The translations under genes and the position numbers were made by a program. Shown here one piece after another: positions 2,864 to 10,951 of a stretch of DNA of 64,000 nt. The stretch lies in the IMG/VR virus record IMGVR_UViG_3300025895_000123, one strand, 5' to 3'. The DNA comes from a virus. Position 1 is the stretch's first letter. Every line of letters begins with the position of its first letter. The notes below the pieces were generated by a model that was given only the letters and a program-made list of their open reading frames with translations, did no database searches and was not told the DNA's origin.

Positions 2864-3290
2864 ATTGATTAAAACTATCATAGCTGTATTAAAATACGAG
2901 GACCACGACCACGCTACCGGGGTTTTTAACGTAGGACAATTAGCCAAGGATCGAGTAAGAGATATGCTTTCACTTCACAGAGAAGATTCTTTAACATACG
3001 CAATACAACATGCTAAGATTAAAGAATTAAGAGAGGTATATGATTATCTCGAAAAATACATAGAACATATGATCAAATATCCTGTTGAAAAATGTCCGTT
3101 GTGTCAAACGTTAAGTAGACAAGTGAATTTTAGGAAAAATACATTCGTTGTCGAATTAGCGGAAAATTACATCCCTACCTTAGTCAGCCATGTTGGTAGG
3201 GGTAAAGCAATTAAACGAATTGTAGAGGAAGCCTCAGTTTCCCTTAAAATTCAAGCAGCACAAGCTATTGACAATTTAGCTAAGAAATAA
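2850..3290 (+). CDS. Hypothetical protein with CxxC
   Basis: 146 aa ORF overlapping upstream stop; CPLC motif. Confidence 0.6.
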   Translation: MKKSELIKTIIAVLKYEDHDHATGVFNVGQLAKDRVRDMLSLHREDSLTYAIQHAKIKELREVYDYLEKYIEHMIKYPVEKCPLCQTLSRQVNFRKNTFVVELAENYIPTLVSHVGRGKAIKRIVEEASVSLKIQAAQAIDNLAKK

Positions 3291-3329
3291 ATTAAAGATG
3301 AGGGACGTAGACTTTGTTAAATAATGATT

Positions 3330-3350
3330 AGCCCCTTCGGGGGCTTTCTA
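3330..3350 (+). terminator. Intrinsic terminator
   Basis: AGCCCCTTCGGGGGCTTTCT hairpin with UUCG loop. Confidence 0.65.
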
Positions 3351-3372
3351 TCTACTAAAGAAAGGGAAGATA

Positions 3373-3657
3373 ATGGATGACAACATATATAGAAAAGTTT
3401 TTGATGAAGTAATTAAGGTACCAGAGAAAGATCTGTTTGAAATATTTTTTTCATGTAAAGAAGATATGAAAAAAATTGAAAAAGACTTAATCCCAAGAAC
3501 AAGATGCACAAGCATGATTAAATTAGTACAGTACTTATTAACTGCATACATATGTAGAAACTCAGAGGTGTCAAGAAATGAACAATCAGATAAAGGGTAT
3601 CCACGAATGGATGTACTCTACACTTTAGACCTTAAAGAAAGGGAAACAAATGAGTAA
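3373..3657 (+). CDS. Hypothetical protein, paralog of 3650-3847
   Basis: KVFDEVIKVPEKDLFEIFFSCKEDMKKIE aligns with KVLKEVEKLSNKDLASLYLSCKQKMKEIE. Confidence 0.65.
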   Translation: MDDNIYRKVFDEVIKVPEKDLFEIFFSCKEDMKKIEKDLIPRTRCTSMIKLVQYLLTAYICRNSEVSRNEQSDKGYPRMDVLYTLDLKERETNE

Positions 3658-3847
3658 ATATGTATTTATAAAAGTACTTAAAGAAGTTGAAAAATTGTCT
3701 AATAAAGATCTAGCATCATTATATCTTTCATGTAAACAAAAAATGAAGGAAATCGAAGCCGAAGAAATTCCAAAAGCAAAAGGTGAAAGTGTTCGTGAAT
3801 TATTACAACAAATATTAACTAAATATTTATGTAAAGAATCGAAATAA
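3650..3847 (+). CDS. Hypothetical protein, paralog of 3373-3657
   Basis: Shared KD..SCK..MK.IE..IP...LLxxY motif. Confidence 0.65.
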   Translation: MSKYVFIKVLKEVEKLSNKDLASLYLSCKQKMKEIEAEEIPKAKGESVRELLQQILTKYLCKESK

Positions 3848-3853
3848 TCTCTC

Positions 3854-4111
3854 TCAATTAGGGGATGTTCCTGGAGAACTCCCCGGTTGAGGGTTTTCTT
3901 TTTTAACTATCTCCGTAATCTTCTTTTGCATCCATAGTTCAGTATCTTTTGTATTCTGACTGTCTGGATGAACACAATAATTTGTTCCTTGCCTTGGTGG
4001 CATAGATCTAATCGTATCTGCGTCATGTTCAGTTAACATAACTAATATAGTTATATCCTTAGAATCAAATTCTAAGTCAAGACTATCGTTACCCTTTATT
4101 ATTACTTTCAT
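3854..4111 (-). CDS. Hypothetical protein
   Basis: 85 aa ORF with AAGGA RBS, divergent from the RAMP gene. Confidence 0.55.
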   Translation of the reverse strand: MKVIIKGNDSLDLEFDSKDITILVMLTEHDADTIRSMPPRQGTNYCVHPDSQNTKDTELWMQKKITEIVKKENPQPGSSPGTSPN

Positions 4112-4124
4112 ATTAATCCTTTTT

Positions 4125-4159
4125 GGTATTCATGGCATACATATAGAAATATATACAAT
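4125..4159 (+). promoter_or_regulatory. Conserved phage promoter motif driving the RAMP gene and array
   Basis: TTCA ends 4132, 9 nt gap, TATAGAAAT 4142-4150, then ATA-TACAAT. Confidence 0.7.
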
Positions 4160-4238
4160 AGAGGTAGAAGCATGAGGCTTCTACCATTTTAATTTACCGA
4201 ACCTACCCCAGGGGATAAATAGGGGGAAAGGATTTATC

Positions 4239-5204
4239 ATGGCTGAATATAAAACGAAGGAGAATGTCAAATCTCGAAAAAAGAAAAAAGTCTGGGAGTA
4301 CTATCAAGTCAATTTTCTTCTCAGGACTGAGATGTTAGGTACTTGTGCCGAAGCGTCTATCATGGAAATTCATGTCATTGAGAAGGCCAAAAAACAGATC
4401 ACTAAAGCAAATCGACTTGACAAGAAAATTAAGGCGTTAGATAAATTCAAAGGATCAGAAATTTCTGAAGAAAAAGAAATCGATGAACTCCAGGGTGTTA
4501 TTCGCACCTACATGGAACTAACGGGGAAACCAGCTCATGAAACTTTACCCCGTGATAAAAAAGAGTTAATGCAAATTGCTGAAGAAGTCCGAGATGAATT
4601 TCATGAACTTGTTAAAGCGGGTGAAGATGTTAAAGCAACTGTCTTCATGAGAAACACCAAGGTCAACCTTGGAATGGAACTTGAACCAGATGAAGACGAA
4701 ACAACAACATGGCCAATAATATCCACTCATATGCTCCTTGGAAATTTCAAGGAGAATGCGAATATTGTCATCAATGGAACTCATAAAGATGACAAAAAGA
4801 GTTTATTACCAGCACAACTTTCTACTAAGGTAAGTGTCGGTGAACAATTCGCAATGAGTGTCAAACCAGTGGAACCTTTCATGATTCCTAGTAATGACAT
4901 TGTCCGTAATGGTAATGGTGATCGGGAGATTCTTGAAAGAATTGTTAGATGGACAAATAACTTTGGAAAGACTGAAACTGCTATCGCAACATCTGAGATG
5001 CTTCCAGAAGGAACTACTTTCGGATGTATACTCCGTGTTCGGAAAAATTCTCCAATTAGTGAAGACTTTCTTAAAGAATTACTGGAGTATGGTAAAAACA
5101 ATGGCCTTGGTTCCTGGAGAGGTTCTGGGAACAAAGGATCATATTACTGGCAATTAGAGAAACTTGTTGATTACATGGAAGATAAACCGGATGGTTGGAA
5201 CTAA
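4239..5204 (+). CDS. Stand-alone Cas7/Csm3/Csf2-like RAMP-superfamily protein
   Basis: RAMP-like elements: N-terminal strand YYQVNFLLRTEMLGT, PIISTHMLLGNFKENA helix, SEMLPEGTTFGCILRV strand, C-terminal Gly-rich loop GLGSWRGSGNKG; helical insertion after the first strand. Confidence 0.75.
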   Translation: MAEYKTKENVKSRKKKKVWEYYQVNFLLRTEMLGTCAEASIMEIHVIEKAKKQITKANRLDKKIKALDKFKGSEISEEKEIDELQGVIRTYMELTGKPAHETLPRDKKELMQIAEEVRDEFHELVKAGEDVKATVFMRNTKVNLGMELEPDEDETTTWPIISTHMLLGNFKENANIVINGTHKDDKKSLLPAQLSTKVSVGEQFAMSVKPVEPFMIPSNDIVRNGNGDREILERIVRWTNNFGKTETAIATSEMLPEGTTFGCILRVRKNSPISEDFLKELLEYGKNNGLGSWRGSGNKGSYYWQLEKLVDYMEDKPDGWN

Positions 5205-6164
5205 TCATAACGCAATGGTTGGATGCTATTTTGTCCAGTAAATCTTTGTAACGGTGGGATGAATTACATCCTTGTGCCATCATGTTATGGTCATCTAACG
5301 CAATCTCAAGTGTTTTCTAGAGGTGGGATACCGTAGTATCTGTTGTAATTTCGTAACGGCAAACTAGGGTGGATCTTACGTGGATTTGAATTACCTCATG
5401 TATTGGTAAAGCAGTCTGTGATGATTTAAGATGGAGCGTTGTTACGGTCTGGTATCATGAGTTCCCGTTACCTGTGGTGTTGGTAGATTAATATCGTGTA
5501 TGATGCGATTAAGTCTAATCTCGTCTTGGTAAAATGGGATGGTACGATGCGATGTCTAGGTCAAATTAAGTCTTGGAAAGTGGACTGGTCTCTGATTATG
5601 TAACGTCAAGGTACGATACTATGAGGTGTTATGCCATCTTGTATGATAAACTAGAGTACAGGTCGGGTACGATGCGATTTAGCAATGTATCCTTTGTTCC
5701 GGTATTGGCCCAACCAAGTCATGCAATTTGTAGTGTTGGTGAATCGGGGTAGGGTTTGATTGAGTTGAGTATATTTACCTGATTTAATGTCTCGTATTGG
5801 TCCATTTTTGTCTCGAATGTGAGATAGGGTTGGATGGTGTTTTGGTAATATGCGATAATGTGACTTAACTCAAAACATCGCAAAATATCGTCGAGGTAAA
5901 GTAAAGTTCTATAGTGTGAACTAAAGTGTTGGTACGATGCCTAGTACAGGTGTATTTGAGCTGGATTTTTTGATGCAATACATCGTGGCGACAAATAAAA
6001 TAAAGCAAAGTAATAAACTAGTATAAGTATTCGTATTTAGTAACGGTACATTAAAGTGCTGTCCGTTCCGGTACAGGTGGGATGGTATGATGTTCTGTAT
6101 GATATAGTAATATCGGATTATGTGAAGTAGTGGTAAGATGAGATGTGATATAGTCACGTCGCGT
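5205..6164 (+). repeat. Non-coding pentamer-periodic array (NNNNY units punctuated by NNNGGY hexamers); putative guide-RNA array
   Basis: Pyrimidine (mostly T) at nearly every 5th base, e.g. 5613-5663 ACGAT ACTAT GAGGT GTTAT GCCAT CTTGT ATGAT AAACT AGAGT ACAGGT; starts at the RAMP stop codon, ends at a terminator. Confidence 0.85.
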
Positions 6165-6173
6165 CAACACCAA

Positions 6174-6209
6174 GATCCCCTTCTTCGGAGGGGGATCAAA
6201 CTTTTTTTT
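6174..6209 (+). terminator. Intrinsic terminator closing the RAMP-array transcript
   Basis: GATCCCCTTC-TTCG-GAGGGGGATC stem followed by AAAC and T8. Confidence 0.8.
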
Positions 6210-6692: not shown

Positions 6693-8726
6693 TTAAACAG
6701 CTTCTAATGCTTCTATTCTAGATGTTAAGTCATCAATCACAGCTTGTTGAGAAGTAATCAAAGTTTGTTGATCAGTAGATAACGTTGATAACTCCTGCAC
6801 TGATTTAATTAAAGGTGCTATAAACTCTGAATATCTCATACCAAGCATAGGTTCACTCTCACCAGTTTCTGGTACTGCTTTCTCTGGATCTGGATCAGGT
6901 GCTGGAGGTGGAGTCCATCCTCCAGGATATTCTGTCACATATGGATCTATGTATCCAGCAAAATCTACACCAAGATCATCCATTACAGTTTTAACTTCTT
7001 GTGCTATTACACCTTGATGAGGTCTTGTTCCATCATTCCACTTATAAGTCACTGTATTAAGTCTATCAATAAAATCTAATCCAAGACTGTCACCAAGTAC
7101 AGTTTTCAATCTACTATCTGAACTATTAATAGACGTATCTGTTGCCCAAACATCTTTCCAAAGATTAGCAGATCGACCAAGAGACAGATTATTACTAGGA
7201 CTAGGCATAAATGCAGGAACACTTGAATCAATTCCTATCCATCTAGCAGTACCACCAGAGTCTTTAGCAAACGCCCACGTATCACCACCCAAACGCTGAT
7301 TTTCAATATATATGCTATCATTAGAACCTTGACCGCATTTAAAATAACCATATACTGATCCAGCGGAATTCTGGAATCCAATAGTTGGATCATTACCGTC
7401 CTTATCCCAAACAACTATTCCATCAGCAGTAGTACTAAATGCTTTTCCACCAGCATGATATAATGCTACTCTATGCTCACCATAAAAATCAGCACACAAC
7501 TGATTTACAGAGGATTGATCATTTGCTTTAATTTGAACAGGACTATCATCTCTGTTACTACTTATAATAAACTCACTATCATTTACATAGATATAATCAG
7601 TAACATCATCAGTAGTATTATGGAAACCAAAAGATGGATATACTGCATCTTCGATTGTTAATCCCCATGGATTAGTAAATGCTGACTTAACACCATCATG
7701 ATATAGTTCGACAGCCCCATTTAAATTTGCTACTATACCGCTTTCTTCACCTGATCCAAGTAACATATTTAGTGCTGAAGAGCTGTAATGTATTCGCCCA
7801 AGTTTAGCTGAAGCTGAACTGTAGAATGCTACGCTGCAATCTGTACCCGATGTATCAAATAACTCAATACCGTAAGAAGCTGTTCCTAACATTTTGACAT
7901 TATCGTGATACAAATCAACAGCACCATTTGCATTCCCTCTAAGTACTGCTTCATCTGCTGAATTATTTATTCCAACTAGAGAAGAAGATGCAAAAAATCT
8001 ACCAAGTAATGCATCTACATCACTATATAAATTAATATATGCATCAGATCCAGAATTATCGTGCACAGCAACACCATTAGCTGCTGTTTCAAAAGACTTA
8101 GTTCCTGCATAATTAAGTTCAACAGAACCACCACCTGTAAATACACCTGAAACATAATCATTACCCTTAAGAGTAACTGTATTAGCAGGTTGGCCTATTG
8201 TAATATTTGTATCTTCTAACAAACCAATTCTTTGTATAGTAGCTGTTAAGTCAAATACATCATCTCCATCAACTGTAGCTTTAATATCCCCTGTACCAGT
8301 ATCAGTTACTTCGAGAGAACTATTTCCTTCTTCTATTAAACTTGTAACACCAGGAGCAGATAACTCTTCAGCAATATCTATGAATATAGCACAATCACCA
8401 ACCGTTAATGATCCAAATGTCACTGTGATCTGATCGTCCGTATCGTAAGTAATATTCGAAGGCGTTATCAAATCTCCAACATCATCATAACATATAACTA
8501 TTAATTGACTACTATCTAAATTATGAGTAATCACCCAAGATGTTGAACCTGTCGGTTGGTTATGAATATGTCTACGAGTTCTATTTGTTATTGGATACCA
8601 ACTGAGCAACCCGTCAACATCTGTGAAAACATATAATATATCATTAACAAAAACTAAACGACCTTCACTAGGACTATCTGGGAAACTAAGTAATGATGGT
8701 AAGACTGCTCCATGTAATTTAACCAT
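6693..8726 (-). CDS. Tail fibre/spike with C-terminal peptidase S74-type intramolecular chaperone
   Basis: SSDSRLK autocleavage motif, GVIAQEV, RYSEFIAPLIKSVQEL and terminal coiled coil; four V(E/D/A)LY(H/A)xxxK repeats; N-terminal WVITHNL module. Confidence 0.85.
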   Translation of the reverse strand: MVKLHGAVLPSLLSFPDSPSEGRLVFVNDILYVFTDVDGLLSWYPITNRTRRHIHNQPTGSTSWVITHNLDSSQLIVICYDDVGDLITPSNITYDTDDQITVTFGSLTVGDCAIFIDIAEELSAPGVTSLIEEGNSSLEVTDTGTGDIKATVDGDDVFDLTATIQRIGLLEDTNITIGQPANTVTLKGNDYVSGVFTGGGSVELNYAGTKSFETAANGVAVHDNSGSDAYINLYSDVDALLGRFFASSSLVGINNSADEAVLRGNANGAVDLYHDNVKMLGTASYGIELFDTSGTDCSVAFYSSASAKLGRIHYSSSALNMLLGSGEESGIVANLNGAVELYHDGVKSAFTNPWGLTIEDAVYPSFGFHNTTDDVTDYIYVNDSEFIISSNRDDSPVQIKANDQSSVNQLCADFYGEHRVALYHAGGKAFSTTADGIVVWDKDGNDPTIGFQNSAGSVYGYFKCGQGSNDSIYIENQRLGGDTWAFAKDSGGTARWIGIDSSVPAFMPSPSNNLSLGRSANLWKDVWATDTSINSSDSRLKTVLGDSLGLDFIDRLNTVTYKWNDGTRPHQGVIAQEVKTVMDDLGVDFAGYIDPYVTEYPGGWTPPPAPDPDPEKAVPETGESEPMLGMRYSEFIAPLIKSVQELSTLSTDQQTLITSQQAVIDDLTSRIEALEAV

Positions 8727-8765
8727 GCTATTAATCCTTATTATCTCTTCAATATTTTTATAACT

Positions 8766-9074
8766 CTATAAGATTCTTATATCTTCAAAACTTTTCTTTT
8801 TATCCCCTCTTTCACCTTTTCTTCTCTCTTTAAACCATTCAATAACTTGAATTCTCCCTGTATTACTATCTATTTCTGTTATAACAGCAATATTATATAA
8901 TCTCTCTAGAGTCTTTATACCAGCAGAAATTAATCTATTTTCTAAAGTCTTATCGTTCTTTAAATTATTAAAAATCTTATCAATAACTTTCTTACTTTGA
9001 TGATCAACATCTTTTGACTTAATTAATTCTCTCACAAAATCAAAATCTTTTTTTAAAATCTTTTTATTACCCAT
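8766..9074 (-). CDS. Hypothetical basic protein
   Basis: 102 aa ORF in operon. Confidence 0.55.
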   Translation of the reverse strand: MGNKKILKKDFDFVRELIKSKDVDHQSKKVIDKIFNNLKNDKTLENRLISAGIKTLERLYNIAVITEIDSNTGRIQVIEWFKERRKGERGDKKKSFEDIRIL

Positions 9075-10290: not shown

Positions 10291-10951
10291 AGTTAGATTC
10301 AAACTAGAGGGGTAAACTCCCTTCTGGGCGTTTACTTTCACAGAGTATATATCACAATCACCTCTCATATTGAGAGTCGGTAATACTATGATTCAGTTTG
10401 ATATCTTTGAGCAGAATTTTGATAATCCAAATAATGAAATAGTTGTAATCATTGTATTACATTCTAATCATCTAAACAATCAAAAATTTCATTTTTTACA
10501 TAGGGGTAAATACGGGACCGATTGTTTTTATTCGTTATTTAATGCTCGAATGATTCTTTAATTTTTTTTGGAGATTTATTCTAGTAGTTAGCATTCAGTT
10601 CCATCTAAATGATTCTAAATCGTTCTCTCTCGTAAACATCTATCCCAGTCGATATTCCGGGGGTTCCGAATGGAACCCTGGGGCCATCCCTGGTGTACTC
10701 CATTCTTACTGTCGGAAAGTGTCCTTTTGCCCTTGGGCAACTTATTTTTTTTAAACAATTTTACAAAATGGGTCTAATTTTTGCATACAATTTTTATGTT
10801 TTAAAATTTAATCCTATCCCATTCAATTTAAGTCATAAAAATAATACATAAAGTTCTAAGGTGATCAAATGTATATAGGTGATAACTACATAATTACTTA
10901 CACTAGTAATTTACTAGTAATTCTGTTGATATATACTTTATGTCATAGGTA

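Follow-up and report, generated by a model that had tools for sequence, protein, structure and literature searches.

The window analysed here, a 64,000-nt stretch of viral DNA (IMG/VR record IMGVR_UViG_3300025895_000123), contains a gene for a Cas7-like RAMP protein, vipr, followed on the same strand by a long tract with a 5-nt period and by a strong intrinsic terminator (Table 1). No credible ORF is present in the 950 nt after the vipr stop codon, and a consensus scan of the plus strand of the array calls neither an internal promoter nor an internal terminator. Upstream of the gene, a promoter match and a hairpin (together 4132..4185) likely mark the upstream limit of the vipr transcription unit; the promoter match is tentative because promoter-like sites are no commoner than in shuffled sequence. 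The gene and the array are probably co-transcribed. The final unit of the array, which runs into a small hairpin and then the terminator, may be capped differently from the others.

In the gene annotation of the window, a tail-fibre gene adjoins the vipr locus. The neighbours of vipr give zero cas matches in Pfam or PHROGs, and no CRISPR-like repeats are found within 30 kb of the locus. The locus finds no match among RNA runs. Among DNA runs, four yielded contigs that comprise the source assembly and low-depth fragments, and the array is left uncovered in the other samples.

Table 1. Features of the vipr locus in the window, with the Vipr gene of phage SUSP1 for comparison
Feature	Position	Strand	Description
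Weak sigma-70-like promoter match	4132-4159	+	consensus scan; tentative
9-bp hairpin	4163-4185	+	scores as a terminator on both strands
vipr gene	4239..5204	+	321-aa Cas7-like RAMP (P0001)
Putative staggered vrRNA array	5214..6164	+	~183 NNN-R-Y repeats; 21 hexamer-bounded units and a last unit without a hexamer
NNHGGY hexamer ends	5219, 5255, 5291, 5324, 5360, 5407, 5448, 5484, 5530, 5561, 5612	+	
NNHGGY hexamer ends, continued	5663, 5709, 5740, 5801, 5846, 5897, 5933, 5951, 6047, 6078, 6134	+	
A-rich non-periodic element inside the array	5985..6033	+	core ATAAAGCAAAGT at 6000-6011
Hexamer-less final unit	6135-6164	+	six pentamers, then a small hairpin (~6140-6165), then the terminator
Intrinsic terminator	6174..6207	+	10-bp stem with 6 GC pairs, T run after it; predicted to close the vipr-array transcription unit
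SUSP1 Vipr	KT454805 28474-29061	minus	Escherichia phage SUSP1, type II; has vap1

Structural comparison identifies the product of the gene as a RAMP, as the sequence-only reading of this DNA had proposed. An AF2 model of the protein (P0001; pLDDT 81) finds its best PDB matches by Foldseek in Csm3, type VII Cas7 and Cmr4 (E 2.5e-6), together with Cas7-11 domains, and the top of the structure matches consists essentially of Cas7-type proteins only. The same model gives a VIA Z of 10.1 against Csm3 (6ae2_B). It contains an expanded three-helix bundle at about residues 39-126, a conserved beta-hairpin (residues 232-252) at the expected thumb site, and a G-loop, GLGSWRGSG, at residues 289-297, in which R294 is invariant. 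A public gene call of the same protein (P0002, 290 aa) starts at Met32, at position 4332 of the window rather than 4239. The start at 4239 is the correct one, since the first beta-strand (residues 19-28) lies upstream of Met32 and is both conserved and confidently modelled.

VIPR is a CRISPR-related RNA-guided DNA silencer described in 2026 preprints, in which a lone phage RAMP, Vipr, is accompanied by vrRNAs. A vrRNA consists of 9-16 YNNGG pentamers followed by a 3' tail, and its NN bases read double-stranded DNA while skipping one target base (bioRxiv 10.64898/2026.04.26.720920). Five Vipr seed proteins are named in that discovery preprint (X1U2U4, A0A0F9A1L0, A0A661D0E2, A0A1F4YLN4, and A0A2D6XG06). 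When the P0001 model is searched against 2.3 million AlphaFold clusters, all five fall within the top 9, with A0A1F4YLN4 at rank 1 (E 9e-14). P0001 has no match in Pfam or PHROGs, and blastn and tblastn searches against 50,697 phage records return nothing for the locus. Its homologues comprise 77 close relatives and 880 cluster representatives at E <= 1e-3.

These homologues include a long form, to which P0001 belongs, and a short form. By hhalign, the two families match from end to end (E 3.6e-45), interrupted by a single helical insertion of about 75 residues. The short family can in turn be aligned at full length with the experimentally studied Vipr of phage SUSP1 (173 columns, probability 83%, E 8.5e-6). 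Aligned directly, the long family and SUSP1 Vipr show only a weak match confined to the G-loop, so the short family is needed as a bridge. A companion cryo-EM preprint on type II VIPR, whose residue numbering fits the SUSP1 Vipr sequence that we extracted from KT454805, describes a helical filament in which each repeat is occupied by one protomer and GGY is sequestered between neighbours. In that structure, G1 is read by H17 and D177, G2 is read by R138 and W178, the pocket for Y includes R179 of the next protomer, and the helical bundle holds the skipped target base. The W and R of the G-loop are retained between SUSP1 Vipr and P0001. By remote alignment, H17 and D177 correspond to T35 and S292 in P0001, with Q in the short family, and this replacement would fit the loss of the first G of the repeat.

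The array itself has a strong 5-nt rhythm. Identity at lag 5 is 0.386, compared with 0.272 +/- 0.015 in dinucleotide-preserving shuffles (z 7.7), and it is likewise raised at lags of 26, 31, and 36. The strongest 950-nt lag-5 windows of the whole 64 kb coincide with the array region, and a scan of both strands identifies it as the only pentamer array of its sort in the window. The tract is G/T-rich and C-poor (13% C). An Rfam search of the array finds no family, and its RNA folding is at the level of shuffled sequence (z -0.17 and -0.56).

The sequence-only reading had reported that the 5-nt phase slips by +1 at hexamers ending in GGT or GGC, and had listed 22 such hexamer ends. Parsed with these boundaries, the array resolves into 157 pentamers, with T at position 5 in 80% and a purine (G/A) at position 4 in 77%, and 22 hexamers of the form NNH-G-G-T/C (20 T, 2 C). 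A motif-agnostic cyclic five-state HMM with uninformative insert states finds 18 slips of +1 in the window, one of +3, and one of -1, and over 11 loci about 400 slips of +1 versus about 45 others. A second HMM has an explicit six-state path, whose extra base was initialised as uninformative. Trained on 11 related loci, this path settled on N N H G(.89) G(.96) Y, as estimated from 476 hexamers, and in the window the model recovers all 22 of the listed boundaries plus one doubtful extra at 6022. Of these 23 hexamers, 22 end in GGY, compared with 10 of the 160 pentamers that are in phase (Fisher p 1e-19). The pentamer rhythm and the slips at GGY are real and far beyond chance.

The odd spacings of 33, 47, 45, and 18 nt that had been singled out are exactly where the HMM places its irregularities: +2 at 5317-5318, +1 at 5371, -1 at 5816, and +2 at 5939-5940, respectively. 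A bias of the spacings towards 5n+1 is present as well, but it carries no separate weight, because it follows automatically from +1 slips. Independent evidence for punctuation lies in the nearly exclusive use of +1 slips, in the GGY context of the hexamers, and in the unit sizes, which are under-dispersed (mean 6.4 repeats; variance 6.1, versus 34 for a geometric distribution). The GGY motif alone does not define a boundary, since four units are off 5n+1 and 10 in-phase pentamers also end in GGY.

The same module is found in relatives on IMG/VR contigs of up to 172 kb. All 12 long-form relatives examined have a period-5 array of 0.3-3.8 kb directly 3' of the gene, and the arrays lie on the strand of the gene at every locus. 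The long-form loci with readable flanks are L001, L003-L012, L015, and L017; across 13 loci, no gene besides vipr is conserved within +/-6 kb, and this includes any accessory vap gene. Extra period-5 arrays lie upstream of vipr in L001 (5266-5948) and in L009 (3683-4087 and 5683-5948). L001, a 172-kb phage contig, also has an IS605 OrfB/TnpB-like gene split into two ORFs (2930-4053), 2 kb upstream of vipr.

The short-form family, much the larger of the two and with proteins of about 215 aa, matched more than 566 viral contigs, and 80 of its loci were fetched from IMG/VR (L021-L100); contigs of three other short-family proteins are too short to show an array. Arrays of at least 100 nt occur in all 80 loci, and many of them lie upstream of the gene rather than downstream. 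Their grammar consists of NNN-G-C pentamers with A-A-H-G-G-C hexamers every 26-31 nt. Slips of +1 number 1122 versus 64 others, and 1090 of 1174 units are 5n+1 in length, with modes of 26 and 31 nt. The long and short clades thus have the same punctuation at only about 25% protein identity, and its presence in 80/80 short-form loci indicates that it is a general property of a large Vipr clade.

Comparison of arrays from related phages, which the sequence-only reading had suggested as a way of looking for gain or loss of whole units, reveals whole-unit turnover among L004, L015, and L017. Each of these arrays holds about 100 units in about 4 kb. BLAST among the three detects short colinear patches only (35-140 nt), and about 25 pairs of equal-length units are at least 80% identical, with their order conserved and the other units unrelated. 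By the same criterion of at least 80% identity, unrelated loci share zero unit pairs. In a shift test, in which windows of unit size are moved along the arrays, homology blocks coincide with the hexamer-bounded units: the matches peak at an offset of 0 (46/257) and fall to 6-11 at +/-15-20 nt. When pairs are picked on the pentamer body alone, the variable bases of a unit's own 3' hexamer are co-inherited with it (80/88/68% identity), versus a background level of 44/52/40% for the upstream hexamer (p 4e-5). Because the 3' hexamer is co-inherited and the upstream one is not, the unit consists of n pentamers and then its hexamer. The earlier proposal that the hexamers delimit discrete units is borne out by both tests.

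In a pair of arrays that are 99.6% identical, the sole indel is of 10 nt, equal to two whole pentamers. The commonest unit length depends on the lineage: one clade favours 26 nt, another 36-41 nt, and L003 41-46 nt, and the window has a mode of 36 nt with a broad spread. Among the three related arrays, it is whole units that are inherited, lost, or replaced. Units also have a polarity: position 4 is G in 46% of internal pentamers, then in 54% and 72% as the 3' end approaches, where the GG of the hexamer follows, and the first pentamer of units is A-rich and C-poor. Two near-identical direct duplications occur inside the single array of L004, each of one or two whole units: an adjacent pair of 84 nt, 90 nt apart (~10487-10660), and a pair of 72 nt, 231 nt apart (8683-8985). 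The pattern suggests that arrays grow via unit duplication followed by divergence.

Substitutions in homologous units show where the information lies. By position, the frequencies are N1 5%, N2 5%, n3 13%, R4 34.5%, and Y5 16%, and the two motif positions drift within their base class while N1N2 stay. The low rate at N1N2 implies that the nominally variable bases are under purifying selection, as a guide code predicts; such conservation would be expected of guides and not of a generic binding scaffold. The intermediate rate at n3 raises the possibility that the third base may contribute to the code. We rejected a reading of N1N2n3 as a reading frame: TAA/TAG are depleted in some arrays, but so are GTA/TAC, and TGA is enriched. 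The joint depletion of TAA/TAG and GTA/TAC points to avoidance of the TA dinucleotide rather than to coding.

One stretch of the array stands apart from the pentamers. The A-rich stretch at about 5987-6041 had been interpreted as possibly a decayed or recombined guide. Simple decay is not supported, since a similar element interrupts the arrays of L004 twice (7482-7527 and 8021-8060), L015 (5249-5291), L017 (4198-4250), and L001 (7551-7601). These elements, found in arrays of distantly related phages, share a core like ATAAAG(T/C)AAAGT (ATAAAGTAAAGT) with a T/G-rich run before it, and in L004, L015, and L017 a 9-bp inverted repeat brackets the element. In the window, 5985-6033 therefore looks like a conserved non-guide element. 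A phage promoter motif was considered and rejected, as the window shows no enrichment of the core and has it nowhere outside the array. The element could separate sub-arrays, signal processing, or provide an internal start.

Searches for natural targets were small or limited to exact matches. All units were compared with local non-array DNA under the rules NN, NNx, xNN, NNxx, NNN, and NNNx, and matches were at the level of triplet-shuffled units; near-matches under NNN involve eight units, versus 2-6 in shuffles, which is not significant. The exact gapped patterns scanned in public collections came from the two longest units of the window, under NNx (a rule that takes in contiguous NNN as well), and from one unit conserved in three phages, under NNN and NNNx; these gave 0 matches in viral contigs and 0 in metagenome contigs. 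A 19-nt match inside another vipr gene was dismissed as a target because it is purine-rich and of low complexity. As no natural target appears under any rule tried, guide function is argued here from homology and from the selection pattern.

Taken together, the evidence makes it likely that the locus is a phage VIPR, with a lone Vipr and a staggered array of about 22 vrRNA guides in which the hexamer forms the 3' boundary of each. Each guide would be made up of 4-11 pentamers of the form N1 N2 n3 R4 Y5 and would close with one N N H G G Y hexamer. By analogy with the type II system, one Vipr protomer would bind each repeat, gripping the constant R-Y bases, and the exposed variable bases would read the double-stranded DNA of competing mobile elements, leading to silencing. 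The extra G of the hexamer would move the 5-nt register by one; a filament could then not continue in phase into the next unit, which would make the hexamer the 3' boundary of the guide. The boundary may act by RNA cleavage or only as a register break. The earlier reading spoke of guides that would template filaments of different lengths. Type II Vipr does form a filament by cryo-EM, but in VIPR the filament serves to present the guide for DNA recognition and is not itself the end product. As far as they reach, the comparative data support reading the hexamers as boundaries between guides, in agreement with the 2026 account of staggered VIPR arrays.

If the register break operates without cleavage, the array would yield one or a few long RNAs on which separate Vipr filaments lie side by side, with GGY as a nucleation or stop site. 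The position of the array between one gene and one terminator, free of internal plus-strand promoter or terminator calls, is compatible with this, as are the shuffle-level folding and the empty Rfam search, with no ribozyme or structured tail between units. In addition, the hexamer has the canonical GGY, for which type II Vipr shows its highest binding specificity (cryo-EM preprint), and the VIPR architectures confirmed by sRNA-seq do not include staggered arrays (10.64898/2026.04.26.720920). On the other hand, the vrRNAs characterised to date, each about 100 nt long, are discrete RNAs recovered together with Vipr on purification, and 'individual processed vrRNAs' are mentioned in the legend of fig. 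S18 (10.64898/2026.04.26.720920). The observations made here fit cleavage and a register break equally well; we regard long uncleaved RNAs as unlikely.

If the units are not guides at all, they would have no targets, and the periodic RNA or DNA would serve to soak up or decoy a protein, to scaffold an assembly, or to act at the level of DNA through curvature or dsDNA binding sites. RNA bound by ring proteins such as TRAP is a precedent, as it has short motifs at 5-nt spacing, and our searches returned zero targets under any rule tried. Such a function is hard to reconcile with the finding that N1N2 are far better conserved than the motif positions when homologous units are compared, with the rapid, spacer-like turnover of units between related phages, and with a signal that lies on the gene's strand at every locus; moreover, homologues have been shown experimentally to guide DNA binding (10.64898/2026.04.26.720920). 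We therefore consider it very improbable. Still less credence goes to the idea that a decaying repeat has gathered its slips as neutral indels or by replication slippage, with GGY coincidental. The four window units with other irregularities (+2, +1, -1, and +2) speak for it, but the ratio of +1 slips to all others is about 9:1 in the long family and 1122:64 in the short one, GGY is associated with them at p 1e-19, the same punctuation recurs in clades at about 25% protein identity, and unit lengths are strongly under-dispersed and lineage-specific. The slip, GGY, and unit-length statistics effectively refute it.

Beyond the preferred reading of a phage VIPR with hexamer-bounded guides, a bolder proposal can be made, which we put forward as speculative and on present evidence doubtful. 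The clade with the expanded helical bundle might have the most compact guide array known, with tail-less, repeat-less guides of 26-61 nt, up to about 100 of them in 3.8 kb. The hexamer G would be both a ruler and a processing signal that is read, and perhaps cut, by Vipr, and the code would be changed, with up to three informative bases per protomer. If this is true, loss of the G1 readers (H17 to T, D177 to S) frees the third base, and the pairing rule differs from NN plus a 1-base skip.

As a class of RNA-guided DNA recognition, VIPR is only months old, and it has been suggested to be ancestral to CRISPR. The locus and its 90-odd relatives provide a testable grammar of n pentamers and one NNHGGY hexamer, with the boundary immediately 3' of Y, and the comparative evidence presents hexamer-bounded units as the entities under selection and turnover. 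The comparison also brings out a large subfamily in which the helical bundle is expanded, the G-reading residues are altered, and each repeat has a third base that is semi-constrained; it is the natural place to look for a variant pairing rule. About 100 guides in less than 4 kb may also interest designers of multiplexed guide arrays.

The published VIPR survey covers 667 systems in seven types, with six vap families and a vap operon described as 'typical', and includes the alternative repeats NNNGG, YNNNG, and NNNNG (10.64898/2026.04.26.720920). The protein in the window has the RAMP fold and a G-loop related to those of the Vipr seeds, and pentanucleotide repeats lie beside vipr on its strand, with an NNN-R-Y pattern that corresponds to the YNNNG class and not to YNNGG. 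The location is viral and the setting is non-CRISPR, with no CRISPR repeats and no other cas genes. A two-gene operon with vap is absent; this is not strictly disqualifying, as the operon is only 'typical' and there are six vap families for seven types. At 321 aa, the protein compares with about 20 kDa for published Vipr.

Among the VIPR variants, staggered arrays resemble the window in having a lone phage RAMP beside a long pentanucleotide array of the Y-NNN-G class with abutting vrRNAs. The fig. S18 legend describes them as 'the end of one vrRNA marking the start of another', with a 1-nt overlap (10.64898/2026.04.26.720920), and it is from the wording of this legend that we equate them with NNHGGY punctuation. 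In the Y-NNN-G register, the final Y of a window hexamer would be shared with the next unit, which gives a spacing of exactly 5n+1. Membership of the Vipr family, punctuation, whole-unit inheritance, and N1N2 conservation match the array to staggered vrRNA arrays of the YNNNG type, as far as that legend describes them. Further arrays of period 5 located by Vipr-like folds have been reported with non-canonical motifs found by entropy periodicity (WGT/NN, TGH/NN, and others; bioRxiv 10.64898/2026.10.21.760802). They resemble the window in having a degenerate first constant base, and WGT/NN is near n3-G-T; they differ in that their motifs occur about 10 times, and the accessible part of that text describes neither hexamer punctuation nor kilobase arrays.

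The type II system of SUSP1 (bioRxiv 10.64898/2026.04.26.720920, 10.64898/2026.04.26.720927, and 10.64898/2026.10.15.759431) is likewise phage-borne and shares with the window a RAMP, a G-loop ending in W-R, and a pentamer RNA on the strand of the gene. It is likened to the window also in having one protomer per repeat and a code in the variable bases, properties that the window would share by analogy. In SUSP1 (KT454805) there are four vrRNAs, which lie apart from one another and are about 100 nt long; each combines 9-16 strict GGY/NN repeats with a pseudoknot tail at its 3' end. The window, by contrast, has neither strict GGY/NN repeats nor a structured 3' tail, and so falls outside type II: about 22 tail-less units of 26-61 nt lie in one tract, only R-Y is constant, and vap is absent. 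Its Vipr is 126 residues longer than that of SUSP1, and the G1 readers H17 and D177 are replaced.

Class 1 Cas7 proteins (Csm3, Cmr4, and type VII Cas7) are the best solved-structure match to the window Vipr (Z 10.1), and like Vipr they are RAMPs that polymerise on a guide RNA, whose bases are flipped at regular intervals by the thumb. They differ in their 6-nt period, in placing no sequence requirement on the guide, and in working with CRISPR repeats, Cas6/Cas5 capping, and other Cas proteins. The window has neither a repeat-spacer array nor Cas5, Cas6, Cas10, or a small subunit, so its likeness to class 1 CRISPR-Cas is one of fold only. The conclusion that the locus is a further example of the recently described VIPR kind, and not a new kind, is well supported.
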